From positions 14,322,001 through 14,386,000 of the forward strand of contig NC_086108.1 in the NCBI RefSeq assembly GCF_963921235.1: a stretch of 64,000 bases of DNA, written 5' to 3'. The notes under the pieces were generated by a model. That model was not told the DNA's origin. It saw only the letters and a program-made list of their open reading frames with translations, and made no database searches. Both the position numbers and the translations under genes were made by a program. Below, piece by piece: positions 10,391 through 63,600 of this stretch (position 1 is the stretch's first letter; every line of letters starts with the position of its first letter). Source of the DNA: Mobula hypostoma. Its lineage: Eukaryota.

Positions 10391-10825
10391 CCTCGAGATT
10401 TCTGCACCTTTATGCACTTCTGGCCTTCGTTCTTTGACATCACTATTCTCTTCTCTAAACTTCCAAGCTTCCAAACTTCCATGTTCTTCTCCGTGGTAAA
10501 TGCGGATGAGAAGTATTCACTTAGGACCTTGCTCATCTCCCACGGATCCATACATGTACTGATCTTTCTCCTAATCAGTGGATCAGGCACCATTTATTGA
10601 GAGAATCAGAATTAGGTTTGTTATCACTGACAGAAGTTGTGAAATTTGTAATTTTGCTACAGCAGTAGAGTGCAGTATATAAAGTACACCGTGGATTCCA
10701 GTTAACTAAGACACATCGGAACCAGTACATTTTAGACCCATTAAGTGGCTGCCCCAGTTAGCCAAAGTTTCATGGAAATTGTTAAAAAGGTATAAAAAAG
10801 ACAAATTACTATTTAACTGAGTAAC

Positions 10826-27832: not shown

Positions 27833-29195
27833 AGTGGCATGCAAAAGTTTGGGCACCCCTGGTCAAAATTTCTGTTACTGTTAATAGTTAAGTGAGTAGA
27901 AGATGAGCTGATCTCCAAAAGTCATAAGGTTAAAGACAAAACATTCTTTTCAACATTTTAAGCAAGATTAGTGTATTATTTTGGTTTTGTACAATTTTAG
28001 AGTGAAAAAAAGGAAAGCAGCCCCATGCAAAAGTTTGGGCCAAGAGATTTGAGCTCTTTTACCAAGTTCTCAGACCTTAATTAGTTTGTTAGGGCTATGG
28101 CTTGTTCACAGTCATCATTAGGAAAGGCCAGGTGATGCAAATTTCAGAGCTTTATAAATATCCTGACTCCTCAAACTTGTCCCAACAATCAGCAGCCATG
28201 GGCTCCTCTAAGCAGCTGCCTAGCTCTCTGAAAATTAAAATAAATGATGCCCACAAAGCAGGAGAAGGCTATAAGAAAATAGCAGAGCATTTTCAGGTAG
28301 CCATTTCCTCAGTTCGTAATGTAATTAAGAAATGGCAGTTAACAGGAACAGTGGAGGCCAAGTTGAGATCTGGAAGACCAAAAAAACTTTCCAAGAGAAA
28401 GGCAAATCAAAATTCCCGTTGTACTGCAAAAGACCTTCAGCGACAACTGCACAAATATGACCTTCATGGAAGAGTCATCAGAAGAAAACCTTTCCTGCGT
28501 CCTCACCACAAAATTCAGCGTCAGAAATTTGCGAAGGAACATCTAAACAAGTCTGATGCATTTTGAAAACAAGTCCTGTGGACTGATGAAGTTAAAATAG
28601 AACTTTTTGGCCGCAATGAGCAAAAGTATGTTTGGAGAAAAAAGGGTGCAGGATTTCATGAAAAAAACACCTCTCCAACAGTTAAGCACGGGGGTGGTTC
28701 GATCATGCTTTGGGCTTGTGTTGCAGCCAGTGGCACGGGGAACATTTCACTGGTAGAGGGAAGAATGAATTTAATTAAATACCAGCAAATTCTGGAAGCA
28801 AACATCTCACTGTCTGTAAAAAAAAAAGCTGAAGATGAAAAGAGGATGGCTTCTACAACAGGATAATGATCCTAAACACACCTCAAAATCCACAATGGAC
28901 TACCTCAAGAGGCGCAAGCTGAAGGTTTTGCCATGGCTCTCACAGTCCCCTGACCTAAACATCATCGAAAATCTGTGGATAGACCTCAAAAGAGCAGTGC
29001 ATGCAAGACGGCCCAAGAATCTCACAGAACTAGAAGCCTTTTGCTAGGAAGAATGGGCAAAAATCCCCCAAACAAGAATTGTAAAAGATGGAAAAAAAAG
29101 TCATCTTGCTTAAAATATTAATGAAATGTGTCATCTTTAACTTTATGCCTTTTGAAAATCAGGTCATCTATTACTCACTTAGCTAGTCTCAGTAA
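27832..29195 (+). mobile_element. Tc1-like (IR/DR) transposon with broken transposase
   Basis: [21 protein letters not shown] and [11 protein letters not shown] motifs; CATGCAAAAGTTTGGGC repeated at 27838 and 28024; truncated right IR at 29100-29195. Confidence 0.93.
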
Positions 29196-37600: not shown

Positions 37601-38399
37601 TACACATTCATTGGCCATATTTTCCTAATCTTACCCTCACTGGAGTATAGCACAGGCAGCAAGCTAAAGATTATTATCCTTGAGGTTCTGCTTTTTAGCT
37701 TCCTACCTAACACCCTCTTCAGGAGCTCACCTCTTTTCCTAACTATGTTGTTGGTACCAATGTGCACCAGTATTTATGGCTGCTCACGACTCCACCCCCC
37801 CCCCCCACCCCTAGGAGTGTTGTGGTCTTGATCTGAGATACCTCTGATGCTAGCATCTGGAAGGCAGCATAAAAACTGGGAGTTTCAATCTTGCTCACAA
37901 AATCACCTTTTTGTAACTAATGAATCCCCTATCTATATCAATACTGCTCTCTTCTCCCCCCCTACCTTTTTCCTTTCTGAGCTACAGAGCTGGACACATT
38001 GCCAGAGACCTGGCTGCTGTGGCTTTTCCATGTGGGGGTCATCCTCCCAACAGTATTCAAAGCGGCACACTTGTGATTAAGGGGAGCAGCCACTGGGGTA
38101 CCTTACACTGACTGCCTATTCTATTTCCATCTCCTGACTGTCCACTATGGCTCTTATCATTTTGTACACCTCTATCGAGTCACCTCTTATCCTTCAGCGC
38201 TCCAAACAGAAAACCCCTAGCTCACTCAACCTCATAAGACCCTAATTTAGCCAATTCTGAAACCACCTCATCAGTTCACCCTGAATCCCACATAATGCAA
38301 CCTTCCAGATCATAGAGACAACGTCCAATGCCCTACCTTCATCTATCCCCTAAAATACAGTTACCTGTATCCTACCACCTTGGTGTGACTGCTTCTCCA

Positions 38400-41300
38400 T
38401 TACTCCTGTTTGATCAAATCCCCAAGGCCTGACCAAGTGCACTCCCCAGAGACTAGAGAAGAAATTGCAGAGGTGCTTATAGAGATATTTACTTCTTCAT
38501 TAGCCACTGGTGAACTTCCAGATACTGGAGGGTGGTTAATGTTGTTCAAGAACAGTAGCAATGACAGGCCAGTTGTTGTGAAGTTACAGCAGGGAAATCT
38601 GAGGGACAATATTTACCATCACTCAGGTAGTCAGGGCCTGATCAGGAATAATCAGCATGATTTTGTGCATGGAAGGTCAAGCTTGAATGCTTTGGAGTTT
38701 TTCAGAGTTATTTAAGGGGATAGATGAAGGTAGGGCATTGGACGTTGTCTCTATGATCTGGAAGGTTGCATTATGTGGGATTCAGGGTGAACTGGTGAGG
38801 TGGTTTCAGAATTGGCTAAATTAGGGTCTTATGAGGATAGGTTGAGTGAGCTAGGGGTTTTCTGTTTGGAGCGCTGAAGGATAAGAGGTGACTCTATAGA
38901 GGTGTACAAAATGATAAGAGCCATAGTGGACAGTCGTGGCCCGTGGGCTTTTCTCACAAGGCAGAAATGGCTAAAATGAGGGGCCAAAATATTAAAATCT
39001 GGAGGAAAGTGTAGAGGGGATGTCAGAATTAGGTTTTTTTTACACAGAGTGGTTAAGTGTATGGAACATGCTAATAGGGGTGGTGGTAGAAGAAAATATG
39101 AGTTTTTCAAGGAGGTTACCAGGAAAATTGATGAAGGCAAGGCAGTGGATGTTGTCTGCATGGACTTCAGCAGGGCATTTGACAAGGACCCACATGAGAG
39201 GTTGGTCAAGAAGGTTCAGTCGCTTGGCATTCAACATGATGTGTTAGACATTGGATTAGACATTGGCTTTAAGGGAGAAGTCAGAGAGTGGTAGCAGACA
39301 GTTGCCTCTCTGTCTGGAGGGCTGTGACTAGTGGAGTGTCGCAGGGATCAGTGCTGGGTCTGTTGTGTTTGTCATGATAATGTGGTTAACTGGATCAGCA
39401 AATTTACAGATGCCACCAATTTTAATGGATAGCAAGGAAGACGATCAAAGCTGACAGCAGGACCTAGAACAGCTGGAAAAATGGGTTAAAAGTGTCAGTG
39501 GGCAGGTATTGCACATTGGGAGGGCCAGCCTGGGTTAGCGGTAGAGCACTGAGGAGTGTGGTAGAACAAAGGGATCTGAGAATACAGGCATCACATAGGG
39601 TCATAAAGAAAGCTTTTGGCACATTGGCATTCATAATAGAAGCAGTGAGTACAGGAGATGGAATGTTATCTTGAAGTTGCATAAGGTGTTGATGAGGCCT
39701 AGTGTGGAATATTGTGTACAGTTTTGGTCACCTACTTACAGGAAAGATGTAAATAAGGTTAAAAGAGTACGGAAAAAAATTACAAGGATGTTGCTGGGAC
39801 TGGAGGACCTGAGTTATAAGGAACTCAGGTTAGAAAGGTTAAAAGGTTAGAACTTTATTCCCTAGAACATAGTAGATTGAGAGGGAGATTTGATAAAGAG
39901 GCATAGATAAGGTAAATACAAGCAGGGATTCTCCACTGAGAGGCTACAACTAGAGGTCATAGGTTAAGGGTGAAAGGTGAAATGTTTAAGGGGAACATGA
40001 TGGGAAACTACTTCTGTCAGAGGATGGTGAGAGTGTGGAACGAGTTGCCAGCACAAGTGGTGGATGTGATTTCGATTTCAATGTTTAAGAGAAGTTTGGG
40101 TAAGATGGGAGGGGTATGGAAAGCTATGATCCTGGTGCAGGTCGATGAGACTAAGCAGTCTACATGGTTCAACATGGAGTAGATGGGACAAAGGGCCTGT
40201 TTCTGTGTTGTAGTTTTCTATGACCGTGGATGAAAGGAGACTGGAGGTCTATGTGGGAGGGAAGAGTTAGGTTGATCGTAGGTTAAATGGTCAGTACAAC
40301 ATCGTGGGCCAAAGTGATAGTGAAGCAGGTAACAACGAATTGCAAACAACTTGAATAGATAAGAGAGATGGAAATTTGTGGATAACAGCAAGATTGGGGT
40401 GTAGTGAACAGTGAGGAGGCTATCAAAGCTTGCAGCGGGGTCTGGACCAGCTGGAAAAATGGCAGAGGTGCTGCACTTTGGGAGGACAAACCAGCATAGG
40501 ACTGACACAGTGAATGAAAGGGCACTGAAGTGTGTGGTTGAACAGAGGGATATGGGAATACAATTCATAACTCATTGAAAATGTAATTACAGGTCATAAA
40601 GAAAGCTTTTGCTATGTTGGATCAAAGTATTGAGTACAAGAATTTGGTTGTTATGTTGAAGTTGTACAAGACATTGGTGAGGCCTTATTTGGAGTACTGT
40701 GTTATAGGAAACATGTAAATAAGATTAAACGAATACAGAGAATATTTACATAGGTTGTTTCCTAGACTTGAAGATCTGAGTTACTTAATCTGAGAATTTT
40801 ATTCCCAGGAGCATAGGAAAATGAGGAAAGCTTCGAAAGCGATATACAAAATGATGAAGGGTATAGCTGTGGTAAATGCAAGCAGGTTTTTTCCACTCAG
40901 GTAGGGTAAGTCTTGAACTAGAGGTCATAGGTTTAGGGTGAAAGTGGAAATATTTAAGGGGAACATGAGTGGAAACAACTTCACTCAGAGGGTGGTGAAA
41001 GTGAGGAACAAGCTACCAGTAATAGGTGCAAGTTCAATTTCAACAATTAAGAGAAGTTTAGAAATGCACATGGTTGGGAGGTAGTGAGAAAGAGCTCTGG
41101 TCCATGTGCAAGTAGATAGAACTAGGCAGAATAACAGTTTGGCACTGACTAGATGGGCTGAAGAGTCTGTTTCTGGTGCTGAGGTACTCTAATGGCCTGA
41201 GGAACGGCAAATAGATTCTAAGGTAAATAAGGGTGAGTTGAAGCATCTTGAACATTGAAATGAATGAATGTCTGGCCATTGACAAGTGTTGTGGAATAGT

Positions 41301-45169: not shown

Positions 45170-45432
45170 TTTACGCAAACAACAGGAATTCTGCAGATGC
45201 TGGAAATTCAAACAACACACATCAAAGTTGCTGATGAACGCAGCAGGCCAGGCAGCATCTCTAGGAAGAAGTACAGTCGACGTTTCAGGCCGAGACCCTT
45301 CGTCAGGACTCTCTTACTAGCTCTTCCTTCAGTTAGTCCTGACAAAGGGTCTCGGCCTGAAACGTCGACTGTACTTCTTCCTAGAGATGCTGCCTGGCCT
45401 GCTGCGTTCAGCAGCAACTTTGATGTGTGTTG
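45170..45432. mobile_element. Minimal fold-back Penelope-like insertion
   Basis: Two inverted pLTR ends, each with a hammerhead motif (45275-45310 minus, 45335-45370 plus); TSD TCAGGATGTAT (45159, 45433). Confidence 0.85.
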
Positions 45433-45484
45433 TCAGGATGTATATTGTATACATTTCTCTGACATTAAATCTACCTTTGAAACC

Positions 45485-46220
45485 TCGGTCTCTGAGGCCA
45501 GCGTGAGAGCATCTTTCAAGTGGGTAAATCTATGGAAAGCATCTGGCCCATACAGCGTCCTAGCTGAGTACTGAACACCCGTGCTAATCAACTGGCTGGA
45601 GTGTTTATGGACATCCTCAGCCTCTTGCTTTGGCAGTCTGAGGCATCCTTCTACTTCAAGCAGACTTCAAGTATACCTGTGCCCAGGAAGATTCTAGTAA
45701 TCTGCCTCAATGGTTGTATCCAGTAGCACTTAAGTCTACTATGATGAAGTGCTTTGAGAGGTTGATTAAGCGTATTAATTTCTACCTGAGAAGTGACTTG
45801 GATCCGCTCCAATTTGCCTACTGTCATAATAGGTCCACAGCAGATACCATGTTATTGACTTCACTCAGTTTCAGAACACCTGGACATTGAAGATGTATAC
45901 AGTAAGATGCTCTTCATTGACTACAGATCAACATTCAGCACTATCATCCTCTCAAAATTCATCACTAAGCTCCAAGACATTGGCTTCAACACCTTCCCCC
46001 ATGCAACTGGATCTTCTATTTATTCACTGGCAAACCACAGACTGGCAACATCTCTCCTCCGATCATCATCAACACAGGTGCACCCCAAGGCTATCCGCTT
46101 AGCCTCCTGCTTTGCTAACTTTATACCTAATGTGTGACTAAGTGCAGCTTGAATGCTGTATTTAAGGTTGCTGATAACACTTGGCCAAACCAAAACGAAT
46201 AGGTGACGAATTGACTTATG
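45485..46220 (+). mobile_element. Rex1/Babar-like LINE RT fragment, left half of the ERV target
   Basis: LDPLQFAYCHNRSTAD and MLFIDYRSTFSTII motifs; ends at GGTGACGAATTGACTTAT at the LTR edge. Confidence 0.75.
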
Positions 46221-46223
46221 GTG

Positions 46224-46656
46224 TGTTGTTCGCAGGTTCAATGAGTGGAGACAGAAGAGACTCACTACCGGTAAGTAGGTTAACTATTTATTTACAAGAC
46301 ACAACAGACACTAAACATTAAAGCTGAACTCGGTTACAGATACTGAATGCCCGAAGTAGCAGGACAAAACGGACACTAAACGTACATACACACTGCGAAT
46401 ACTTATTTAAAGTGTGTGCCCAGGCCCTCTCCACTGCAGCAAACCAACCACTGTCTACCGTTTCAGCAGCACCCTCATTTACTTGGTCCATGGTGAACCG
46501 AGAGGAATAGAAACAACATGGTTACCACACACGAGATTTAAACCCTATTGGTGCTGTGAAATCATCAGCTAACTGGAAGCTAGTGGGAAGGGCTGAAGTG
46601 CTCCTTACATGGACCAATCCCCACTTTCAATGAACAGCTAAATTAAAGTCACAACA
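46224..46656 (-). mobile_element. 3' LTR of the same ERV
   Basis: TGTTG...CAACA termini. The reverse complement shares blocks with 51332-51801 (GTAAATAAATAGTTAAC, TTTTGTCCTGCTACTTCG, CCCACTAGCTTCCA) and abuts env. Confidence 0.8.
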
Positions 46657-47640
46657 TGCTCAGCCTGTAGGCTAATATAACCCCCATAGACACCCCACTA
46701 TACTACACATGAAACATAACACAATACTACCCAGAATTATCAGTCCACCAGTTACTACGCAGTGTTTTACGGTAACCTACCAAAGGACCACTGCCTTTCC
46801 CCCAGGGTACAGTAGTTACAGAGCTAGCCCTCCACAAGTGACTTATTTACTGACTGCTGGATACAATCAGCTATGTGTGTAATGTTCACCGTCTTTGTCA
46901 GGGTTGTAGATGCAGCCCTTCTGACCAGTCACAGCACAGGTGCCACCTTTCTCTGCGAGCAGGTGGTCCAAGGCCACCTGGTTTTGTAAGACCACCATCC
47001 AAAACAACCGTCTTCTCAGTGCATCCATCACAGAGGCCATGCATATCAGTTCCCAGGACAGCCTGGCCCAGGCACAACATATCTAGTTTAGAGTCCTGGA
47101 AGTGCCCACCTTCATGTCACCATTCGGTGTTGACGCAGTCATCCCAGAATACTGGTCCTGTTCATACTCACTGTGCCCAACTGATTGGTTGGCCCTGTGG
47201 TCATCATACCCCTTGCACTAGCACTCCTTCCCCTTCCCTGTTGGCAGAGCGTCATTCTCCAAATCGGGACCTTGGGATTAGACAATTAGACAGCCCTTAA
47301 TTCACTTACTCCACCAGGGTTACTGAAACCTCAGTTATTTAGGGCTATTCCCTGTGGGGCGAGGTTGACTGAAATGGACTGCTTCTTCCTGGTTTCCCCC
47401 AAGACAGAATGGCAAAGCTGGGGAAGCTGGACAAGTTTCTCCAGCTGTTCTGTTCTTCGTCATTAAAGGAGATCAGTACTAGCCTTCTGCAGCGTGTGAT
47501 AGTACCTTCATGCAGACTTAACAGTCTGAAGTTTAAGTGTGGTTTGTATTCTCATACGCCATCCATAGGAATGTTGATAGGATCTCCCTCTGACCACCAT
47601 CGTTACCACTCCTGTAAGCATCCATCACTTTGCCTTTCAC
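46657..47640 (-). pseudogene. env: Retroviral env remnant with gamma-type TM subunit
   Basis: The minus strand at 46897-47007 reads VLQNQVALDHLLAEKGGTCAVTGQKGCIYNPD (immunosuppressive domain plus degenerate CX6CC). It is followed by a hydrophobic anchor VVTGGLIILGSIVLCFMCSI (~46700-46760). Confidence 0.85.
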
Positions 47641-47643
47641 AAG

Positions 47644-48715
47644 ATCACAAGACAAAGGAGCAGAAGTAGGCCATTCGGCCCATCGAGTCTGCTCCGCCAC
47701 TCCCCCATGAGCTAAACTATTCTCCCATCTAGTTCCAATTTCCGGCTTTTTCCTCATATCCCTTGATACACTGACTAATTAGATACCTATCAACCTCCTC
47801 CTTAAACACCCTTAGTGATCGGACCTCCACAGCTGTATGTGTTAACGAATTCCATAAATCCACGACCCTCTGGCTAAAAAAATTTCTCCTCATCTCTGTT
47901 TTAAATTGGTACCCTCTAATTCTAAGACTGTGGCCTCTTGTCCTGGACTCACCCACCAAAGGAAACAGCCTTTCCACATCTACTCTGTCCAACCCTTTCA
48001 ACATTCGAAATGTTTCTATGAGATCCCCTCTCATTCTTCTATACTCTAATGAATACAGTCCAAGAGCCAACAAACGCTCCTCATATGTTAGCCTCTGCAT
48101 TCCAGGAATCATCCTTGTAAATCTTCTCTGAACTCTCTCGAACATCAGAACATCCCTTCTAAGATAAGGGGCCCAAAACTGCACACAGTATTCCAGATGA
48201 GATCTCACCAGTGCCCCATAGAGCCACATCAACACCTCCTTACTCTTATATGCTATTCTTCTTGAAATGAATGCCAACATAGCATTCGCTTTCCTTACTG
48301 CCGATCCAACCTGGTGGTTAACCTTTAGGGTTTCCTGCACGAGGACCCCCAAGTCCATTTGCACTTCCGATTTTTGAATTTTCTCCCCATTTAAATAACA
48401 ATCTGCCTGATTATTTCTTCTTTCAAAATGTACAACAATATATTTCTCAACATTGTATCTCATCTGCCATTTCTTTGCCCACTCTCCTAAACTGACCAAG
48501 TCTCTCTGCAACCTTTCCGTTTCTTCAACACTTCCTGCTCCTCCACCTATCTTGGTGTCATCCGCAAATTTAGCCACAAGACCATTTAATCCATAATCTA
48601 AATCATCGATATACATTGTAAAAAGAAGCAGCCCCAACACCGACCCCTGCGAACACCACTAGTAACCGACAACCAAACAGAATAGGATCCCTTTATTCCC
48701 ATCCTTTGATTTCTG
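47644..48715 (-). mobile_element. 5'-truncated CR1-type LINE inserted inside the ERV
   Basis: 303-aa ORF 47729-48640 with KFADDTK, HLEYCVQFWAP and RMRGDLIE motifs; CR1 3' tail. Confidence 0.9.
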
Positions 48716-48719
48716 CATT

Positions 48720-49110
48720 TCTGTAATGCAGGAAGACACAAACTCACTCCCTCCTGGTTAGCTGCAGGGTATTTTGACAGACTATCCCCTGTTGCCCCAG
48801 TAACACCACCCATCCTGTATTCCCCGGTCTCTGCGTGCTACAACCTACTTGAGCCCTGGTGGCCCCCCCCACCCCCACCCCCGGGCTGCTGGCCGGGAGT
48901 TCACTTTGTCTGCTGTCTGTAACAGCACACTCCTCACCCCTGAAGGGTGTGGGTGGGAGTCAATTACTTAATCAGCTGTTTCTGCAGCCTGTCCTTCGCT
49001 TGGTCAGCCCTTCGGCTTCTGTGTGGTTGGGGATGTGGAGCAGCCACAGAGTGCCAAACATATTATCCATGTCCATGTTTCCCTTCCTGCAGACCCTTTG
49101 CAAGTAACTG
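48720..49110 (-). pseudogene. pol: ERV integrase fragment (no protease or RT seen)
   Basis: GTLWLLHIPNHTEAEGLTKRRTG resembles the ERV-L integrase segment GIHWSYHVPHHPEAAGLIERWNG. Confidence 0.65.
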
Positions 49111-49240
49111 AAAAACATAGAACAAACAATTAATTTCCACAGTGGAAAACTTAAGCACATTTACCAAAGAACAAAGGGACTTAATTCATTCACTCAGCCA
49201 TGAAGTGTAGCCCTCTTAAAATATAAGAGCTCCTGCAAAT

Positions 49241-49620
49241 TCATTTCAGTGAAGGATAAAGGGAATCCTGTGGAGGACAGAAGGCGCCCTTATTGGTAGA
49301 GGGCTTGAAGAATGACCCTTCCCACTTAGTGGCCTCCTGACCTCTCTTCTCTGGGCAGTGTTCCCTCCAGATGGCACAGAGGGTGGGAGTGGGAACACAA
49401 TTTACTTGCTCCTTTGGGAACCTGGCTCTGAGCAATGCCAGATACAGTTCTTCACGAGTCATGCGAGGCCCTCCATTCCAAGGCAATCGACTACGGGGAC
49501 CCTCCCCCATCTACTCTAATTCCTCCAATAATCAGATGGCAGCATCTGTCTATCGCTTGTCCCAAGAAGGGCAGCACCATTCCCTTTAGATCGTGTGCTG
49601 CCACTTTAACTAAATAAGGG
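49241..49620 (-). pseudogene. gag: ERV-L-like gag, C-terminal part
   Basis: YLVKVAAHDLKGMVLPFLG and MTREELYLALLRARFPKEQVNCVPTPTLCAIWRE resemble ERV-L FVRGAPASLKSSV and LTRxELWHWLINHGVPRSEIDRKPTAFLLxLY. Confidence 0.7.
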
Positions 49621-49785
49621 TGGTGCTGTAGGTTGTGCACAACGTTTACAGTACAGGCGACCCGGGTTCAATTCCTGTCACTGATGGTTGGTAGATAAAT
49701 TGGTCATTGTCAACTGTCCTGTGATAAGGCTTGGATTAAAATGAGGGATTGCTGGGCAGCGTGACTCGAAATGGTTGAAGTTAAC
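49618..49785 (+). mobile_element. Decayed tRNA-derived SINE at the inversion breakpoint
   Basis: B-box-like GGGTTCAATTCC with a SINE-like body (TAAATTGGTCATTG) similar to 19020-19260. Confidence 0.5.
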
Positions 49786-49952
49786 CTATGATCCTCTGGT
49801 GGAGAAGTCACTGTTATGATAGATCAGTAGCAAGAGCCAAGAAGGTATGGCCAGGGGAGGCGCAGGAACGCTTACAGGACTACTTTGAGTCAGAAGGCTG
49901 GAGTCAATGGCTCTCACACGGCCTTAGATCGCCTGAACGATACAAATATTTA

Positions 49953-50550
49953 CATAGAAAACATAGAAACATAGAAAATAGGTGCAGGAGTAGGCTATTC
50001 GGCCCTTCGAGCCTGCACCGCCATTCGGTATGATCATGGCTGATCATTCAACTCAGAACCCTGCACCAGCCTTCCCTCCATACCCCCTGATCCCTTTAGC
50101 CACAAGGGCCATATCTAACTCCCTCTTAAGTATAGCCAATGAACTGGCCTCAACTGTTTCCTGTGGCAGAGAATTCCACAGATTCACCACTCTCTGTGTG
50201 AAGAAGTTTTTCCTAATCTTGGTCCTAAAAGGCTTCCCCTTTATCCTCAAACTGTAACCCCTCGTTCTGGACTTCCCCAACATCGGGAACAATCTTCCTG
50301 CATCTAGCCTGTCCAATCCCTTTGGGATTTTATATGTTTCAATTAGATCCCCCCTCAATCTTCTAAATTCCAACGAGTATAAGCCTAGTTCATCCAGTCT
50401 TTCATCATATGAAAGTCCTGCCATCCCAGGAATCAATCTGGTGAACCTTCTTTGAACTCCCTCTATGGCAAGGATGTCTTTCCTCAGAGGACCAAAACTG
50501 CACACAATACTCCAGGTGTGGTCTCACCAAGCCCTCGTACAACTGCAGTA
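49953..50550 (-). mobile_element. CR1-type LINE 3' fragment
   Basis: ORF 50053-50505 with RRLRGDLIE and FFTQRVV motifs; (TTTCTATG)n-type tail. Confidence 0.9.
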
Positions 50551-50559
50551 ATACTGGAG

Positions 50560-51331
50560 TGTCTATGTTACCATATACTACCTTGAGATTAATTTTTGTG
50601 CGGCATTTACAGGAAGAATAATTTACAGGAACAATATAATTTAGGAAAACTATACATAAACAAAGACTGACAAACAAAAAATATAAAAGGACAAACTATG
50701 CAAATAAAACATAATACTGGCGACAGGAGTTGTAATACTGAGAACGTAAGTTGTAAAGGGTCCCTGAAAGTGGGAGTGTAGGCTGTAGAGTTGTGGTCAA
50801 TAAAGTTATCCATGCCAGGTCAGGAGCCTGATGATCGTAAGGTAATAACTGTTCCTGAGCCTGGTGTTGTGGGACCTAAAGCTCCTGTACCTCCTGCCCA
50901 ATGGCAGTAGCGAGAAGTGAAGATAGACTTGATGGTGGAGATTTTTAAAGATGGACGCTGCTTTCTTGTGGCAGCACTCCATATAAGTGTATTCTGTGGT
51001 GAAGAGGGCTTTGCCCGTGATGGACTGGGCAGTGGTACCAAGCTGTGATGCAACCAGTCAGGATACTGTCCACTGTGTATTTATAGAAATATATCAAAGT
51101 TTTTGGTGACATTCCAAAGTTTATGCAAACTTCCAAGAAAACTGAAGTGTAGCCGCGCCTTCTTTGCATGTACTGGTCCCAGAACAGATTCTTTGATATG
51201 TTAATGCCAAGGAATTTAAGCTACTGACCCTCTCGTAGACTTCCAGCTTCTTTCTCCTTTAGTCGATTACTAACCCATTGGTTTTGCTGATGCTGATTGA
51301 GAGATTGTTGCATATTTTTAGTCTCCCTCCT
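50560..51331 (-). mobile_element. Rex1/Babar-like LINE 3' part, right half of the ERV target, inverted
   Basis: FGMSPKTLIYFYKYTVDSILTGCITAWY. The reverse complement starts AGGAGGGAGACTAAAAAT, continuing the sequence seen uninterrupted at 62140-62180. Confidence 0.75.
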
Positions 51332-51801
51332 TGTTACAATATGTGTCTTACCTTACCTGCTCATCGAAAACCGCTGTCCCTTGGGAGGTGAGGACTGGTC
51401 TGTGTCAGGAGCATTGCCTCCCCTCCCACTAGCTTCCATTTAGCTCACAGTGTCAGTAGGGTTTATATCTAGTGTGCAGTAACCAAGCGGGCTCCTTTCT
51501 ACTCGAGTTGCCGAGGACCAGGTAGACGAGGGTGCCATGGAAACACTGGATAGTGGAGGTGTGCTGCAGTGCAGATGGCCCAGGCGTACACTCTAAATAA
51601 GTATTTGCCACTGTGTTTACATTTAGTGTCTGTTTTGTCCTGCTACTTCGTGCACACAGCTTAGGTAAGTATCTGCAACCAAGTTTAGCTTGAAACGTTT
51701 AGTGTCTATCTTGTCCTGTAAATAAATAGTTAACTTACTTACTGGTAGTAAGTTTCTTCTGTCCCCACCCACCCAGCCGACAAGCGTGGTTTCTCACAAC
51801 A
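51332..51801 (+). mobile_element. 5' LTR of a class III-like endogenous retrovirus
   Basis: TGTT...AACA termini, TATA-like TTTATAT (51462), AATAAA (51721) and a PBS immediately downstream. Homologous in reverse complement to 46224-46656. Confidence 0.85.
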
Positions 51802-51803
51802 AT

Positions 51804-51824
51804 TCGCGCTGCAAGCAGGGTTCG
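51804..51824 (+). promoter_or_regulatory. Primer binding site complementary to the tRNA-Ser 3' end
   Basis: TCGCGCTGCAAGCAGGGTTCG lies 2 nt after the LTR end and matches TGGCGCAGCGAGCAGGGTTCG (complement of the recalled vertebrate tRNA-Ser(UGA) 3' end plus CCA) at 18/21 positions. Confidence 0.75.
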
Positions 51825-51899
51825 GTGTTTGAACAGAACGTAAGTATCTTTGGAAGGAAAACTTAGAGAGAGAACCCCTGGTAAGAGGAGAGCTGAGTT

Positions 51900-52905
51900 C
51901 TTGGATGGACCAATGATGGTGGGGGATTTGGGAGTCACCTACCCATTGGCAGACTATAGGATGCCCATAGATGGTCTAAGGGGTGAAAATCGAACACCAC
52001 ATCATGTCTGTACATAATAAGCCAGGGTTCCCCAAGAGGCAGGGGAGCCGGAGGGATGCCTTCTCACTGCTGTACTGTGGCAGCAGCAGGAGATAATCTC
52101 ACAAAAGGAGAAAAAAGTAGATAGTTTGAAGAAGGCAATGGAATCAATAAACCAGCAATGTGTGACCACAGGAGAGGTCCCTGGGCAGTGCAGACCCGGG
52201 CCAGGGAGTTAGAAGGTAAGAGCCTAGAGGTGGCCTGTTGGCTAGTGAAGGTGCAACAGTTAGAGGGTATTCGAAGGTCTAATTTGCATCTGGACCTCAT
52301 TAAGGTGCAAGAGCTGATGTTGCCAGGAGCAAAACCCAACACGTGGATGAAGGACGGGAACATTTAGTTAGATGGTAAGGATGGGAAGAGAGTCTTGGGG
52401 ATCCTCCTCTGAGTGAGTGCCCTTCCCCATTTGCATTACAGGCCAGATCGGTCACCACACAGTCCCAGACCAGGTAGGGGGCTGCCAGATTTTAGTCCCT
52501 CCAGCTTCTATGGAACAGGATGAGGAAGAGCAGCAGACTGGGAGAGAAGGATCTGGGGAGGATAACACCGTGGGTCTCACTGAGATGACTACCATCTGAG
52601 TGTTCTCCGCTAAGGAACTGGGAAAGCTGGGAGACAGGTATGGGCAGAAGTTAGGGAAGCCTGTGCCCTGCTGGGCTGCACGGAGTGTTGGAATGGGCCT
52701 ATCCCAGGGGGCCTGTCGGCCCACCGGACGATCAACAATGCCGAGAGTGCCACCCGCTTCCCATGGGGTTGAGGAATCTCTAGGAGGTGGAGTGATAGTA
52801 GTGGTTATGGTCAGGCATCCCTCACTGTTCGAATGGGATTTGCAGCTCTGGGTGGAGTGGAGCCCAGTGGAGGAAGGGAACAGGCCCTTTAGCAGTGGGG
52901 TCTAG
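51900..52905 (+). pseudogene. gag: ERV-L-like gag, N-terminal part, decayed
   Basis: LIKVQELMLPGAKPNTWMKDGNI* resembles ERV-L KVRALIGKEWDPxTWxGDVW, and FSAKELGKLGDRYGQK resembles YTPKELLEFSNLYKQK. Contains stops and frameshifts. Confidence 0.7.
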
Positions 52906-52911
52906 TCACAA

Positions 52912-54050
52912 GAGATCAGAATCAGGTTTAATATTACTGGCATATGGTGTGAAATTTGTTAACTTTGCAGCAGTAGTACAATGCAATACATGATAAATAT
53001 AGAAAAAACAGAATTACAATTAGTATCTGTATATGTATATTAAATAGTTAAATTAAGTAGTGCAAAAATAGAAATAAAGAAGTAGTGAGCTGTTTTCATG
53101 GGTTCAATGTCCATTCAGAAATCAGATGGCAGAGGGGAAGAAGCTGTTCCTGAATTTCTGAGTGTGTGCCTTCAGACTCCTGTACCTCCTTCCTGCTGGT
53201 AACGATGAGAATTGGGCATGTACTGGGTGATGGGGGTCCTTAATGATGCACGCCGCCTTCTTGAGGCACCACTCCTTGTAGATGTCTTGGATACTATGGA
53301 GGTTAGTGCCCATGATGGAGCTGACTAATTCTACAACTTTCTGCAACTTACCTTGGTCCTGTGCAGTTGCCCCACCCCCTACCCCCATACCAGACGGTGA
53401 TGCAGTCAGTAAGGATGTTCTCCACAGTACTTTTGTAGATGTTTTGGAGTGTTTCAGGTGACATACAAAATCTCTTCAAGCTCTCATTGAAGTATAAATG
53501 CTGTCTAGCTGCATCAATATGTTGCATCCAGGTTACGTCCTCAGAGATATTGACACCCAGGAACTTGAAATCGCTCAGTCTCTCCACTTCTAATCCCTCT
53601 GTGAGGATTGGTTTCTGTTCCCTTGACTTACTCTTTCTTAAGTCCACAACCAGGTGTTTGGTCTTGCTGTTGTTGAGTGCAAGTTTGTTGCTACGACACC
53701 ACTCAATTGACTGGTATATCTCACTCCTTTGCGCCCTCTCATTTCATTTTAAATTCTGCCAACAATAGTGTATCATCAGCAAATTTATCGCTGGCAATTG
53801 AGCTATGCCTATCCTCACAGACATGGGAATGGAGGGAGTAGAGCAGTGGGATAAGCAGTGGGAGTTGTGCCAGTGTTGATTATCAACAAGGTGGAGATGT
53901 TATTTTGAATCAGCACAGATGGTGGTCTTCCAGTTAGGAATTCAAGGAACCAGTTGCAGAGGTATAGAGGCCAAGGTTCTGTAGCTTTTTGATCAGGACT
54001 GTAAGAATGATGGCGGTAAACCCTGAGCTATAGTCAATAAGCAGCATCCG
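52912..54050 (-). mobile_element. Rex1/Babar-like LINE 3' part
   Basis: FKFLGVNISED, IIKDPHHP and RYRSLKAHTQKFRNSFFP motifs; (ATTCTG)n tail. Confidence 0.85.
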
Positions 54051-54065
54051 TTCCCAACAAAAATA

Positions 54066-54629
54066 CACTCAGTGGCCACTTTATTAGGTACACCTGTATA
54101 CTAGTTCATTGATGCAAATATCTAATCAGCCAATCATGTGGCAGCAACTCAATGCATAAGAGCATGTAAACATGGTAAAGTGCTTCAGTTGTTCAGACCT
54201 AACATCAGAATGGGGAATTAACATGGAATAATTGCTGGTGCCAGATAGGGTGGTTTGGGTCTCTCAGAAACTACTGATCTCCTGGGATTTTTACATATAA
54301 CAGTCTCTAGAGTTTACAGGGAATGGTGCAAAAAACAAAAAAAAAAATTCAGTGAGCAGGAGTTCTGTGTGCAAAAATATCTTGTTAATGAGAGAGGTCA
54401 GAGGAGAGTAGCCGCTGAAGGAAGGCAACAATAACTCAAAATAACCATGCGTTACAATAGTAGTGTGCAGAAAAATATCCCTGAACACACAACATGATGA
54501 ATCTTGGTTGGGCTACAGCAGCAGAAAACTACGAACATACACTCAGTGCCCACTTTATTAAGTATATTCCTGTACACTACTGTGGTAATGCATGGTTATT
54601 CCTGTACTTAATGAAGAGGTCACTGTGTG
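54066..54629. mobile_element. Tc1-derived non-autonomous element
   Basis: Left TIR CACTCAGTGGCCACTTTATTAGGTAC, degenerate inverse at the right end and TA flanks. Confidence 0.75.
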
Positions 54630-55135: not shown

Positions 55136-55227
55136 GCTCCTGGCCACAGCAGCAACGCACTTCAACCTCCGAACTCTGAGGGCAGTCCGTGTTCTGCGAC
55201 CTCTGAAGCTGGTGTCTGGGATTCCCA
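55136..55227 (+). CDS. CACNA1E: Internal coding exon of a Cav2 voltage-gated calcium channel alpha-1 subunit (domain I S3-S4, equivalent to exon 4), most like Cav2.3
   Basis: Pyrimidine tract, AG acceptor (55134-55135), CTAAT branch-like motif (~55092) and GTGAGT donor (55228). The 92-bp exon translates (G)[30 protein letters not shown](S), the Cav2 IS4 motif. THFN favours CACNA1E over CACNA1A (TEFD) and CACNA1B (TDFD), from recalled sequences. Cav2 identity is near certain; the paralog call is less so. Confidence 0.9.
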
Positions 55228-57689: not shown

Positions 57690-60600
57690 ACACATTTCAA
57701 ATATAGTCAAGGACTTGTTTGAAGAAATCTCTGCCTAATTATCATGAGTTTATAACCTGCAGCACCAGAGGCTCCAACACACTTGACCACTTCTATACTA
57801 TGATTAGGAGGGCCTACTGTTCGTGCCTAGATCGCGTTTCAGAAATCTGAACACTTGGCTGTCCTCTTACCTGCGTACAGGCAGAGGCTAAAGGGCAAGG
57901 CTTCAGAGATAAGAACAACAAAGAGGAGGCATGGGAGCAGAGGAGCAGTTATGGGATTACTTCAGGTCAATGGACTGGGCCATATCAAGGACTCATGAGA
58001 GGATCTGAATGAATACAACACAGTGGTCATTAACCTTATAGCAGCAGTTGTAGACAACTGTGTTCCCACAAAATTATTCAGGGTCTTCCCCAACCCAAAG
58101 CCCTGGATGAACCATGAGATCCACAACCTGCTGAGAGCCAGATCAGTTGCATTCAGGTCTGGCATCCAAGTAAGATACAAGAAGTCCTGGTATGATCTCT
58201 GGAAAGCCATCTCACCTGTGGTTCGGGACCAAACTTGAATCACTGAAGGATGACCGACAGCCGTGGCAGCAGTTGAATGATATCACCTCCTATAAAGTGA
58301 AACTAAGCAACATAGGTGACTACAAGGTTTCTCTCTCTGTTGAGCTCAATACCTTCTATGCTGGCTTTGACTGCAAAACAAGGAAGAACTTCACAAACTC
58401 CCACAGCCCGTGATGACTCTTGTGATTTCAGTCCCAGGCCGATGGGAGAGCATCCTTCAGGTGGGTGAACCCACAGAAAGCTTTCAACCCAAATGGGGTA
58501 CCTGGCCGATCACTAACGACCTGTGCTGATCAACTGGCTGTGATAACCTTAACCTCTCATTTTGGTCGTCTGAGGTACACACCTGCTTCGAGCAGGCTTT
58601 AGTTTCAGTGCCCATAAAAAGTATTCACCCTCCATGGAAGTTTTTGCTTTATCATTTTACAACATTGAATCACAGTGGATTTAATTTGGCTTTTTTGACG
58701 CTGATCAACAGAAAACGACTTTTGTGTTAAAGTGAAAACATCTCTACAAAATGATCAAAATTAATTATAAATATAAACACAAAATAATTGATTGCATAAT
58801 TATTCACCCCTTTAATATGACACACCAGATCATCACTGGTGCAGCCAGTTGGTTTTAGAAGTCACATAATTAGTTAAATGGACTGTGTGGCAATGAGAGG
58901 GAAGAGGTGGCTGCGTAGCTGTAGGCATCCGTTAGTCTCATGAGACCATGGATTTGCGCCTTGGAAGGATTCCAGGGCACAGGCCTGGGCAGGGTTGTAT
59001 GGAAGACCAGCAGTTGCCCATGCTGCAAGTCTCCCCTCTCCACGCCACCAATGTTGTCCAAGGGAAGGGCACTAGGACCCATACAGCTTGGCACCGGTGT
59101 CATCGCAGAGCAATGTGTGGTCAAGTGCCTTGCTCAAGGACACGCACGCTGCCTCAGCCAAGGCTCGAACTAGCGACCTTCAAATCACTAGATGAACGCT
59201 TTAACCACTTGGCCACATGCCAACACTGCATATCACAGTGGGGAAAAACACAGCAGGGCACGAGGTTGGCTAGCTGATATCCAAGACTCCAGCATCATTG
59301 GGCTGAACCTGATGTCTCACTGGGGGGCCCATGTGGATGTGCCGGGGGCAACACCCTATCTCAGCTGGTCCAACACCACATTAAAACTGGGGACACCTGC
59401 CCGATCTGCCTGCTGCCCCATCACCTGGCCCTTGGCAAACGCCAGGCAGCGGAGCAGTGGATCAGTACTGGGAGCGGCTGGCATCATCAAGCTCTCAGAC
59501 AGCCTGTGGGCAGCCCCGGGCAGTGTTGGTTAGGAAGCGAGATGGATTGTGGTGGTTCTGCATAGACTAACACCATTTCAGTGCCATGACGCAGAAGGAT
59601 TCCTACCCGCTGCCCCGAATTGAGCTGCTCTGGACTGTATCGTGGGTTTGACCTGGTTCAGCTCTCTCGATCTCCACAGTGGCTTCTGTCCCGGGAGGTC
59701 TGACCCAAGACCACTTTCACCATTGGTCAAGGGCTGTGGCACTTTTGGGTAAATGCCGTTTGGCCTGTGTAACGCCCCAGCCACATTCAAGAGACTGGTG
59801 GAGAGAGTGCTGGCTTACATTCTACGGAGTCGCTGTGTCATCTATTTGGACGATCTCCTGGTAAACACTGTCATTTCTAATGATGCTCTGCGGAACCTGG
59901 AAGAGGTCTTTGCTGCCGTCCGCCAGGCGAAACTCCGCCCTAACCCCACAAAATGCTGTCTGCTGCACCGGCAGACAAAGTTCCTGGGGCGCGTGGTGAG
60001 TGCGGAAGGAATGGCGATCGACCCTGAGAAGGTGGCAGTGGTCAAGGAATGGTCCACTCTGGCAATGCTTTGAGCTTTGCAGCATCCTGCCGCCTGTTTA
60101 TTAAGTACTTCACTGCTGTCGCCAGTTCCCTGCATCAGCTCACCAAAAGGGGAGACCCTTCACCTGGACTGCCACCTTCGACCAGCTCCAAACTGTGTCC
60201 ACCGAGGCCCCAGTGCCAGTGTATCCCAATCCAGCACACCTTTTCATTGTTGACGCAGAGGTCAGCAATGGGGGTATCGGCGCAGTGCTATATCAAACCA
60301 CTACGTTTTGTGGCCATGGATAACTTCACAAATTGGCCACAGGCATAAGGGTCCCGGACCAGAGTGCCACCACCACCACTGAGAGACTTGAAGAGGAATT
60401 CTTATGCCACTTCAGCATCCCTGAGGAACTCCAGTGCTACCAGGGTGCAACTTTGAGGCGCAGGTGTTTGGCAAGGGCTGTAGGCAGCTGGGAATCACCA
60501 AAATGTGGACCACCCCCTTCATCTGCAAAGTGATGGGCTGGTGGAATGATTTAACTGACCCTGGCTACACAGCTTACCATCCTTGTCAGCCAGCACCAGT

Positions 60601-63600
60601 GCAATTGGAATCACCACCTAGCCCTAGCATACCGGATAGCAGTTTAGGAGAAAACTAGGTGTACGCTGGCTGTGCTTGTGTTTGAGTGGGAACTGCACAT
60701 GCTGGTGGATAGGGTGTTTGTTTCCCTCCCCAGCCAGAGATTCCTGGGGGCGGGAGGGGGCGCCAGGTTGGATTACCTGCAGCACCTCAGAGGGCACCTG
60801 CGGGTTGTTCATGTTGTGGCTCAGCAGAACCAAAGTGCAGCCAGCTGCCGTCAAAAATAAGCTTATGATGACGACAGTCAGGGACAGGACTTTACTGTGG
60901 GGAACCGAGTATGGGTCTACTGCTCATACTTGAGCAGTATGAGCTGGAGTGTGGGCCATACCCAAGTATGGGTCTACTGCTCCACCTGGAAGAAGGCTCT
61001 GTCTCCCAAACTTGGAAGCTATTGGAAGGGGCCGGGAGAGGTGTTCAACCACATCTCCGATATAGTATACCAGGCGCGGCTACCTGCACAGCTTTCGGCA
61101 GTTGTGCTGCAGCAGGACCAGCTGCCATCGTATCGGCCCTTGGCAGCCAAGTTGAGGGAAGGGGGTGACACTCTGGCTACCCTGCCTCTTGCCTCATCAT
61201 ACAGTGCCTCCCCTGGGGGGTGGGGATACAGCCACCCCCGAGTGCCCCAGATGGCAGAGTCGACCATCACCGGGACTTAAGGTCTTTGTTGCGGACTCTG
61301 GGGTTGCTGGGATGGCTGACCCCTCAGGTGGGGGCATTGTGCCGCTCTGGGGCGGGGGGGTATGGTCGACAGATTGCCCCAGTATTCCTTGTGGCCAGCA
61401 CTAATTATTGTTCTTGTTTTAAAAGGCTTTCGTGGTGTGCGTGTTCAGTAGAATCATGATGAGATGCTCAAGTTCATTTATTTTAGCTCTGCTTATACCT
61501 TGCTCACTTGTGTGTTTGTGTGCCACCCTGAAATGTAGCCTGGGTGTGTAATAATCACCTCCCCCATCTGTATGTGACTGAGTTAGTTCTCACTGAGCTA
61601 TTGTGCTCTGACTGTTATTGTGCTTGTCACAACAAAAGTGGCTGTTGAGATAAACAAGCTTTTCTCGTCTGTCATCATGGACTGAATGCTTGCCACGGTA
61701 TGAACTCCTGCCTGAGATGCAACCTGAATTCACTCCAATTTGCCTACTGGCACAACAGGTCCACAGCAGATGCCATCTCATGGGCTCTTCACTCAACCCT
61801 GGAACATCTGGACAGCAAAGATGCATCCATCAGGACGATCTTTATCAAGTACAGTTTGGCATTCAATACTATCATCCCCTCAAAACTAATCAATGTTTCA
61901 AGACCTTGACCTCAATACCTCCTTGTGCAATTGGATCCTTGATTTCCTTGATCCCAGTCAGTTCTAATTGGCAACAACATCCCCTCCACGATCTCCATCT
62001 GCACAGGTGCACCACAAGGCTCTGTGCTTAGCCCCCTGCTCTACTTGCTTTGTACTTATGACAATGAGGCTAAGTACACTTCTACGCCATATTTAAGTTT
62101 GCTGATGACACCAGTGTTGCTGGCCAAGTGAAAGGAAGGTGGTGACGAATCAGCGTATAGGAGGAAGATTGAAAATCTGGCTGAGTGGTGCCACAACAGG
62201 ATCTCACTCAACATCAGTAAGACCATTTGACTTCAGGAGGAGAAAACCGAAGGTCCATGTTATCGTCCTCATCGGGGGATCAGAGGTGGAGAGGGTCAGC
62301 AACTTTAAATTCCTCTGTGTTATCATTTCAGAGCATCTGTCCTGAGCCCATTACAAAGAAAGTATTGCAAAGATTCAACATGACTTTAAAACTTTGACAA
62401 ACTTCTATAGATGCATGGTGGAGAATATATTGGTTGTATCATGGCCTTGTATGGAAATGCCAAAGCCCTTGAACTGAAAATCCTACAAAATGTAGTGGAT
62501 ACAGCCTTCTCCATCATGGAGCACATCTATACAGTGTGCTATTTCAGGAAAGCATCATCCATCTTCAGGGACACCCACCACCCAGGCCAAGTTTGAGTTC
62601 AAGTTCAGGTTTAATGCTCATTCAACCAGACATGAATACAGCCAAACAAAACAGTGTTACTCCAGGGCCAAGGTGCAAAACACAGTACTGATCATCACAT
62701 ACAGCACAAGCTTCAGTAAAATACAATCACACAAAAAATACTGTATAGTCCATTACTGTATGGACCCTGTCCATGAATTTTGTAGAAATCTAGTCAATCA
62801 GCTGAGCAAACATAGTGCGGGGGGGGGGGAGGGCGGGGTGCTGGGGCAGCACTGACTTCAGCTTAGACACAGCACCACACCGCCTCTGGTGGAGCGCACC
62901 ATCTCCAACGCCTCTCTCCTGGGCAGCTGTAAATAGATGACACCACAGCTTGAGACCTAGTTGTCACTATGACCAAGGCCACGCAGCTCCCCTGGTGTCC
63001 ACCAATAAAACAGTGAATCAGACTTGCAGCATTCCACATTGACTATGTCCAACAGGGTCTTGCAATTACAAGGAAAGTGACTAAGACGATTACTCGCTGT
63101 TAGACTGCACACCGCCTTCGTGCAGTGACTCCAGTGGTGCCTCTCTGACGCAGACAGCAGCTCCTTTGCCATCGAACAACTCACTGATTTGCGGTACTTT
63201 AATATCTTAATCTCCAGCAGGGTGTTGTGATCGTGAGAAAGTACGTTTAAAAAGGACAGTATCACCTTTGATTGGCTCCATAGAAGCTGCTACCGTCAAA
63301 CACGGCACCATCTCTCTTCTTGCTGCTGCCATTAGGAAGGTGGTACAGGAGCCTCAGGACCCACACCACCAGGTTCAGAACAGTTACTACTCCCCAACCA
63401 TCAGGCCCTTGAACCACAGGGGATAACTTCACTTACCCCACCATTGAAATGTTCCCACACCCTTGGACTTACTTTCAAGGACTCTTCATCTCATGTTCTT
63501 GATTTTTAATGCTTATTTATGTATTTTATTTTGTATTTGCACAGATTGTTGTCCTTTGCATAGGGGTGGTTTGCCCATCCTGTTGCGTTCGATCTTTCAT

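Follow-up and report, generated by a model that had tools for sequence, protein, structure and literature searches.

We ask how one stretch of ray DNA came to carry two retroviral LTRs in opposite orientation, with pieces of gag lying on both strands. The window analysed here is the whole 64,000-nucleotide stretch of Mobula hypostoma DNA, and all positions refer to it. A preliminary description had read the locus as a single provirus that an inversion of about 3.3 kb had divided within gag; this is still the best reading, and the coordinates given for it hold. Judging from the sequence, we consider it likely that inversion of about 49618-52910 cut a single old provirus in gag, possibly as a LINE (LINE-B below) inserted. 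The inversion of some 3.3 kb is probably real but ordinary.

The LTR pair and the interrupted LINE

The LTR-like sequences form an inverted pair in which 46242-46638 matches 51771-51373 at 74% with gaps (E 2.6e-69). The 3' LTR occupies 46224..46656 on the minus strand (its start is uncertain by about 6 nt) and the 5' LTR occupies 51332..51801 on the plus strand, with an AATAAA at 51721, so placed that it is now sense to the host gene. Both are bounded by TGT...ACA, as in class III ERVs. Across ungapped columns they are identical at 331 of 421 (79%), which gives a K2P distance of 0.257 (range 0.23-0.26); several indels separate them, and the unevenness of identity along their length is not significant (chi2 11.4, p 0.12). 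Directly after the 5' LTR, at 51802..51822 (+), lies a primer-binding-site-like stretch whose reverse complement has, by eye, the layout of a tRNA 3' end; it has no match to the Rfam tRNA model, and we take it to correspond to tRNA-Ser; in class III ERVs of this type a tRNA-Ser or -Leu site would be expected. There is no clear polypurine tract directly before the 3' LTR. When metagenome contigs and viral contigs were scanned by exact pattern for further copies of the LTR or the SINE, both scans gave 0. At the elephant-shark rate assumed in the available part of PMC4422223, the LTR divergence would translate into 516-584 My, which is impossible; only at rates of 1-2.2e-9 does it give an age of 52-128 My. 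LTR dating of this kind is what that part of the source applies to the elephant shark CmiERVs, which are likewise old ERV fossils in a cartilaginous fish.

Against the outer ends of the two LTRs we find the two halves of one interrupted LINE, LINE-A. The half before the insertion site (45480..46223, +) aligns to an intact copy at 61698-62150 over 324 of 429 columns and has an RVT_1 match of E 0.012 in one frame, while the half after it (50560..51331, -), now inverted, aligns to the same copy from 62159 on. This uninterrupted copy (61650..62600, +; RVT_1 E 7e-05) is our reference for the insertion site; RVT_1 matches are weak and occur in 2 of 12 LINE frames, and the label Rex1 for LINE-A is our assumption. 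In line with the preliminary description, LINE-A breaks off at 46223 (+) and is taken up again at 51331 (-); aligned with the intact copy (61.6-62.6 kb), the two halves fall on opposite sides of a single point. Past the last aligned block the left flank continues for 12 nt, against 13 nt in the intact copy, so that the halves overlap by 4-5 nt. This overlap is where the putative, decayed target-site duplication lies, with one copy of 4-5 nt at 46219..46223 (+), the position of AGGAG in the intact copy, and the other at 51327-51331 (-), the end of the inverted half. The duplication proposed earlier (TGGTG/AGGAG) is indeed 3/5 identical when ungapped, with the halves in register within 4-5 nt; a duplication here needs a 1-nt loss, and AGGAG is also found in two other LINE copies. 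The halves differ from the intact copy by about equal amounts (K 0.31 and 0.36), and both values exceed the 0.26 between the LTRs, which fits LINE-A as the older target. Two unrelated fragments would resume LINE-A in register with a probability that we roughly put at about 1%, from 13 positions in some 1000.

What does this continuity establish? It had been counted, together with gag, as one of two independent junctions that rejoin when the segment is flipped, but of the two it is the gag break alone that the inversion made. The LINE junction is the insertion site of the provirus; LINE-A continuity bears on the pairing of the LTRs and not on a second breakpoint. For that pairing there are two competing accounts. 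In favour of two separate proviruses of related subfamilies, one per strand and each partly deleted, are LTRs only 79% identical and parted by indels, an imperfect target-site duplication and gag ends that are probably not flush; such a pair, however, would have had to hit the same position, within 5 nt, in two LINE copies and to retain complementary, non-overlapping parts of gag, and we judge it very unlikely. Aberrant reverse transcription prior to integration could also yield inverted LTRs, but it is barely credible here: the outer LTR ends that face the two LINE-A halves are one U5 (the ACA end of the 3' LTR, against the left half) and one U3 rather than like ends, and 1.7 kb of host repeats lies within the flipped piece.

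The break in gag

The gag sequence falls into a leader and 5' piece at 51830..52910 (+), which has many stops and frame slips, carries the major homology region (MHR) at 52639 and ends at the right breakpoint, and a 3' piece at 49244..49617 (-) with a C-terminal block at 49462. Compared by eye, the pieces on opposite strands are in colinear order and do not overlap: the MHR and a GEGIQR-like block lie on the plus strand, and two later blocks follow on the minus strand. We identify these pieces as putative Gag by motif layout and by-eye comparison, with motifs that were chosen after the sequence had been seen. In the parts of PMC8278194 available here, the frog class III Gag of the African bullfrog ERV (suppl. 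5) is identical to the MHR block at 11 of 32 positions and to the C-terminal block at 13 of 33, both by eye, and the MHR has the ERV-L-type layout of Fig. S6 with its conserved Glu replaced. Homologous-protein searches found 0 Gag relatives among 97, 30 and 2231 candidates, the Pfam scan no Gag family, the gag queries in the ESM Atlas no usable match, and those against the PDB 2 chance matches in one case and 0 in the other. Two kinds of hit were set aside: P0001, the sole match among 1.84 billion representatives, is a bacterial repeat protein matched by chance, and the IMG/VR loci L001 and L002 lie in viral contigs that are unrelated and were likewise matched by chance.

Both gag peptides quoted in the preliminary description are found where it placed them, but its flush junction through a PFT motif is not borne out by comparison, with 1/9 identities to the frog Gag. 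A neighbouring frame, read as the GEGIQR block, has 3/10 identities and 3 conservative changes to the one reference used (PMC8278194, as far as available) and extends to 52910. By-eye comparison with the frog class III Gag suggests that the break cost gag some 75-100 nt; if so, the two pieces would probably not meet flush, and the PFT reading would probably lie in the wrong place.

The flipped piece also contains host DNA (a LINE-A half, the end of a CR1-like LINE and a SINE-like element), and the inversion must for this reason postdate integration of the provirus. Could the segment be reversed in the assembly only? The window holds 0 N bases, and the longest inverted match between 49300-49950 and 52600-53300 is 9 nt, with nothing longer to mislead an assembler. 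An artefact would need two misjoins without inverted repeats or gaps and would leave the loss of gag sequence unaccounted for, which makes it most unlikely. Recombination between inverted repeats was also considered as the cause and rejected, there being no inverted homology at the breaks beyond those 9 nt.

Retroposon ends at the breakpoints

Each end of the flipped piece meets the end of a retroposon. At the left end lies a SINE-like, tRNA-derived element (49618..49785, +) whose head begins at the break or no more than about 10 nt from it. It is single-copy in the window, its best Rfam tRNA comparison (49614-49686) is below threshold at E 8.4, and we assume that it is a SINE with its 3' end at 49785. 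ARAGORN finds no tRNA gene, and Rfam finds nothing meaningful in 49400-53200. Further inside is the end of a young CR1-like LINE (49958..50545, -; 92% to 1680-1862). At the right end the 5'-truncated LINE-B (52911..54049, -), which aligns to an intact LINE copy, abuts the gag 5' piece with its 3' tail. From base 52911 onwards the tail matches another copy, at 10600-10680 (78%, E 1.9e-12); it directly follows the last gag-like codon on the GEGIQR reading and is 5 nt away on the PFT reading. The decay of LINE-B is modestly below that of LINE-A (longest open run 131 against 92 and 91 aa). The reciprocal junction, which would pair the 49618 side with the 52911 side or with DNA beyond it, brings two repeat ends together; no duplication and no continuing element was found there, and tests for microhomology and duplication at the breaks are at chance level.

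Our preferred mechanism, held tentatively and with a little less than even confidence, is that the inversion was coupled to the insertion of LINE-B. The sequence of events would begin with a class III-like retrovirus that integrated on the minus strand into LINE-A with a 5-bp duplication, leaving a provirus with gag and a gamma-type env but no pol, which then decayed. Later, the chromosome would have broken at two places, within gag and in the host repeats about 1.7 kb past the 5' LTR, and the intervening segment would have been put back in reverse with about 75-100 nt of gag lost. Reverse transcription of LINE-B, primed at the gag break, would fuse its 3' tail to gag; its truncated 5' end would be attached at the far break, and end joining would close the pair of ends still left. 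According to the available part of PMC13526784, L1 intermediates can link distal breaks in cell assays, and the resemblance to such rearrangements is that a 5'-truncated LINE bridges the junction: its 3' end sits at one of the breaks, and the usual duplication is missing. Unlike the human cell assays in that part of the source, the present case would involve another LINE clade and a germline fossil, known only by inference. On the LINE-B model, the presence of a SINE head at the opposite break would be coincidental, in a region with about 3 repeat edges per kb.

That same density of repeat edges also suits another course, in which two plain double-strand breaks and end joining produced the same inversion and the LINE-B tail and SINE head already stood in tandem. 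Breaks without inverted homology are as expected from end joining, the loss of 75-100 nt fits end resection, and no link between LINE-B and the event is required; yet one break must then have hit the precise boundary of two elements that have next to no spacer separating them, and no duplication links tail and head. We rate this course as somewhat unlikely. Alternatively the SINE may have entered gag first, with a subsequent exchange near the SINE 3' end and the LINE-B tail in which the two traded the DNA downstream of them, so that the inverted piece would be about 49785-52910. This would account for the SINE head adjoining gag, and it can point to a 13-nt similarity of 49789-49801 to the minus strand at 52906-52920; that similarity, however, was noticed post hoc and is matched by 1.8-8.9% of 3190 background tiles, the gag bases are not duplicated at the right junction, and the missing gag stretch is left unexplained. 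We consider the SINE-first order improbable.

The class of the provirus and its host gene

Between the 3' LTR and gag lies a decayed env (46660..47620, -) with a CxxC-like site at 47523, a transmembrane (TM) part with an immunosuppressive domain (ISD) at 46989, a degenerate CX6CC and a hydrophobic anchor. The ISD is clear, one of the three cysteines of the CX6CC is gone, and a stop falls within the CxxC site; the match to Syncytin-1 has E 1.1e-05, and that to TLV_coat (E 0.00015) is below the Pfam cut-off. A later LINE has inserted in env (47625..48710, -), with a 309-aa open frame (RVT_1 E 9.5e-06) and copies elsewhere in the window; we take it to be CR1-like. What remains between the end of gag and this insertion is a spacer with the likely env start (48711..49243, -), about 530 nt as read from the sequence and with no Pfam match in three frames. 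It leaves no space for pro-pol between gag and env. The missing pol, the retained env and the retroposon ends at both ends of the flipped piece had been overlooked in the earlier reading.

We read the provirus as a decayed, pol-less, ERV-L/S-like element with a probable gamma-type env; because pol is absent its class cannot be fixed by reverse transcriptase, and we file it as class III-like rather than as a proven member. In the available parts of PMC8278194, the class III elements XtERV-S and the African bullfrog ERV share with it TGT...ACA LTRs and an ERV-L-type MHR; they also have a tRNA primer site after the LTR, a gamma-type TM with ISD and a CxxC in SU, to which its primer-binding-site-like stretch, its ISD and its CxxC-like site would correspond. 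Their class would predict a 5-bp duplication, here 3/5 identical. Unlike them it has neither pol nor dUTPase and is far more decayed, and it retains both gag and env, whereas all that is left in the deleted copies of XtERV-S is 5' gag and the polypurine tract. Gamma-type-env ERVs of anamniotes, in the portion of bioRxiv 10.1101/2021.11.23.469661 at hand, also occur in cartilaginous fish, including a class III backbone with a class I env; a pol-less gag-env element or an inverted copy, present here, does not appear in that portion. The CmiERVs of PMC4422223, in its available part, carry pol and have an LTR divergence of 0.024-0.033, against 0.23-0.26 here. No description of the present locus was found in the literature searched, which is weak evidence of absence.

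Downstream of the provirus and outside the rearrangement is a 92-nt exon of a Cav2-family calcium channel alpha-1 gene (55136..55227, +; AG...GT), which matches CACNA1B (E 3.1e-12), CACNA1A (E 8.1e-12) and CACNA1E (E 1.7e-10). A scan of open frames, covering 96 of the 130 long and 107 of the 121 short ones, showed no further Cav2 exons, so the intronic location is read from this one internal exon. In a comparison by words, organism B has a share of 0.42-0.45 of the window against 0.82 in the best run, or about 2% divergence if evenly spread; such shares show the presence of words only, and runs at 0.15 or below (organisms C-H) were excluded as evidence.

We find no sign of any function at the rearranged locus, and the event reads as a neutral rearrangement of dead repeats, part of ordinary genome decay in which small inversions of this kind are routine. 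It is doubtful, though conceivable from the sequence, that a LINE-coupled germline inversion turned an antisense intronic 5' LTR into the sense orientation within a Cav2 gene, where its poly(A) signal may end transcripts early, and that the provirus represents an undescribed pol-less gag-env class III family. If this were true, the LTR pair of the family would be some eight to ten times more diverged than the dated elephant shark pairs. The locus matters little by itself. It is a usable dated marker, because its split LINE, its provirus and the two insertions that came later can be put in sequence, and that sequence could be followed in relatives. The provirus also hints at an old ERV-L/S-like element with env but no pol, which would escape screens based on pol. 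Were the inversion coupled to LINE-B, the locus would offer a germline case, found in nature, of a process so far demonstrated mainly by assays in human cells.

The LTR pair and its insertion site

Repeats are dense across the window, 35% of which matches itself. Self-BLAST pairs 46242-46638 with 51771-51373 in inverted orientation (E 2.6e-69), and the match extends to two LTRs of 433 and 470 nt, both TGT...ACA: a left, 3' LTR on the minus strand (46224-46656) and a right, 5' LTR on the plus strand (51332-51801). They are identical at 331 of 421 ungapped columns (K2P 0.257, or 0.227 without CpG sites). Directly after the right LTR lies a stretch whose reverse complement resembles a tRNA 3' end by eye, presumably of tRNA-Ser type, and for which an Rfam search gave no tRNA match. 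A decayed env adjoins the left LTR on the minus strand; its TM matches Syncytin-1 (E 1.1e-05) and, below the cut-off, TLV_coat, and it is interrupted by a later LINE carrying a 309-aa frame. Only about 530 nt separate the end of gag (49244) from that LINE insertion, and a Pfam search found no pol domain there. The layout is LTR-PBS-gag-env-LTR, and the provirus (46224-52910) retains gag and env without pol.

One LINE, which we call LINE-A, flanks the pair in two halves: one (45480-46223, plus) beyond the U5 end of the left LTR, the other (50560-51331, minus) beyond the U3 end of the right LTR. Against an intact copy (61.6-62.6 kb), with each half aligned on its own, the left one reaches 62150 of that copy plus 12 nt and the right one begins at 62159, an overlap of 4-5 nt (TGGTG versus AGGAG). 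AGGAG is present also in the intact copy and in a second LINE, LINE-B (52911-54049, minus), and 5 bp is the target duplication given for XtERV-S copies and ERV-L in the part of PMC8278194 consulted. By our estimate, fragments without a common origin would fall into such close register with a chance of about 1%. The halves differ from the intact copy by K 0.31 and 0.36, exceeding the LTR-LTR distance, which fits the LINE being the older target. This register within 4-5 nt is the strongest evidence that the inverted LTRs are one provirus, as the preliminary description held, and two separate proviruses in opposite orientation are very unlikely. The same description counted the LINE junction as an inversion breakpoint; it is instead the site where the provirus inserted.

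Just left of the LINE-A piece at 45480-46223 lies a short palindrome (45175-45436; 99-nt arms 98% complementary, 24 nt apart), in which two pieces of one repeat meet head to head; that repeat is found also at 9.5, 30.7, 43.8 and 44.6 kb. Elsewhere, 38136-38935 is a young inverted-repeat element of 800 nt (arms 97-128 nt, 98-99% complementary), 28093-29044 (plus) holds a Tc1/Sleeping Beauty-type transposase remnant (HTH_SB, DDE_3), and 59300-61650 (plus) another, unrelated LTR-type element in decay, probably of Gypsy type, with matches to RVT_1 (E 3.5e-14) and RNase H-like sequences.

Gag pieces on opposite strands

Neither gag piece was recognized in database searches, and the Gag call rests on an MHR alignment and a bullfrog ERV sequence from the supplements of PMC8278194, matched by eye in translation. 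An MHR block stands at 52639 in the plus-strand piece (11/32 identical), and a C-terminal block at 49462 in the minus-strand piece (13/33); the first 14 residues of the latter piece show 3 identities and 4 conservative changes to an earlier block. Judged by eye, the blocks on the two strands are ordered and non-overlapping. Using patterns chosen after the sequence had been seen, strict MHR and ISD occur once each in the window and in 0 of 30 shuffles, and per-shuffle averages are 0.13 for the C-terminal pattern and 0.53 for a relaxed MHR. An inversion of about 49618-52910 that split one provirus through gag is quite probable.

The first part of the PMC8278194 GEGIQR block is matched by residues at 52858-52878, and in a neighbouring frame the match runs ten codons further, to 52910 (3 identities, 3 conservative changes). 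On this by-eye reading, the 5' gag piece likely ends at 52910 in a GEGIQR-like block, leaving a gap of 33 frog codons between the two pieces. The flush join through a PFT motif proposed earlier fares poorly: it scores 1/9 against the same frog reference and requires an additional loss of about 100 nt immediately upstream. Measured against ERV-L instead, the stretch missing on the GEGIQR reading would be roughly 25 codons.

Ends of the flipped segment and possible origin of the probable inversion

At the right end, the 3' tail of the 5'-truncated LINE-B starts at 52911, where the match to another tail copy starts. At the left end, a tRNA-like head (Rfam tRNA, E 8.4, below threshold), which we take to be that of a SINE, starts at 49618 or no more than about 10 nt away; a history in which this SINE inserted into gag first is improbable. 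After it, a short stretch at 49790-49950 (plus) presumably resembles in translation upstream LINE sequence of the same clade, and has no match to other copies in the window at E 0.05. Just past the LINE-B 5' end, a 49-nt repeat occurs twice in the same orientation (54057-54103 and 54531-54579; 84%); the two copies resemble Tc1 end repeats and may mask the original LINE-B flank.

The longest inverted match between the two break neighbourhoods is 9 nt, which lends no support to repeat-mediated recombination. Duplication and microhomology tests at the breaks gave chance-level results (best 13 nt, reached by 1.8-8.9% of 3190 tiles). A fused LINE tail, 5' truncation, missing target DNA and the lack of a duplication would fit a LINE-B insertion intermediate joined to the distal break, its 3' tail becoming fused to one break. 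Such joining of L1 intermediates to distal breaks in cell assays appears in the part of PMC13526784 consulted, and by analogy we put this route forward tentatively. Plain end joining would give the same inversion and is rather less likely. Sampled words of 46000-54200 were present at 0.77-0.82 in four organism A runs and 0.42-0.45 in four organism B runs, a measure of word presence only. Misassembly is highly unlikely. Inverted LTRs as a by-product of reverse transcription are contradicted by host DNA inside the flipped segment and are extremely unlikely.

Relatives, age and host gene

In its arrangement the element works like the XtERV-S-type class III ERVs with gamma-type env in the consulted part of PMC8278194, although, since it has no pol, class III membership is not provable. 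The consulted portion of bioRxiv 2021.11.23.469661 reports gamma-type env from cartilaginous fish, the parts seen of PMC6001957 and PMC10699275 are background only, and the literature searches returned no description of this locus. LTR divergence translates to 52-128 My at 1-2.2e-9 per site per year. At 2.2e-10, the rate assumed for elephant shark in the section of PMC4422223 consulted, it gives an impossible 516-584 My. The explanation is either a much higher rate of change in this lineage or LTRs that were already unlike at the outset; along their length, identity is not significantly uneven (p 0.12).

A 92-nt exon at 55136-55227 (plus) encodes the S4 region of a voltage-gated calcium channel alpha-1 gene, placed at the level of the Cav2 family rather than the paralogue. 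Further Cav2 exons were absent from the frames scanned (96 of 130 long, 107 of 121 short), and the intronic position of the provirus is inferred from this single exon. It would originally have been antisense to the gene, the usual bias of intronic ERVs in the part of PMC1794541 consulted. The flip would have turned one LTR, with its AATAAA motif at 51721, into the sense orientation. The locus is probably a real, neutral rearrangement of dead repeats.
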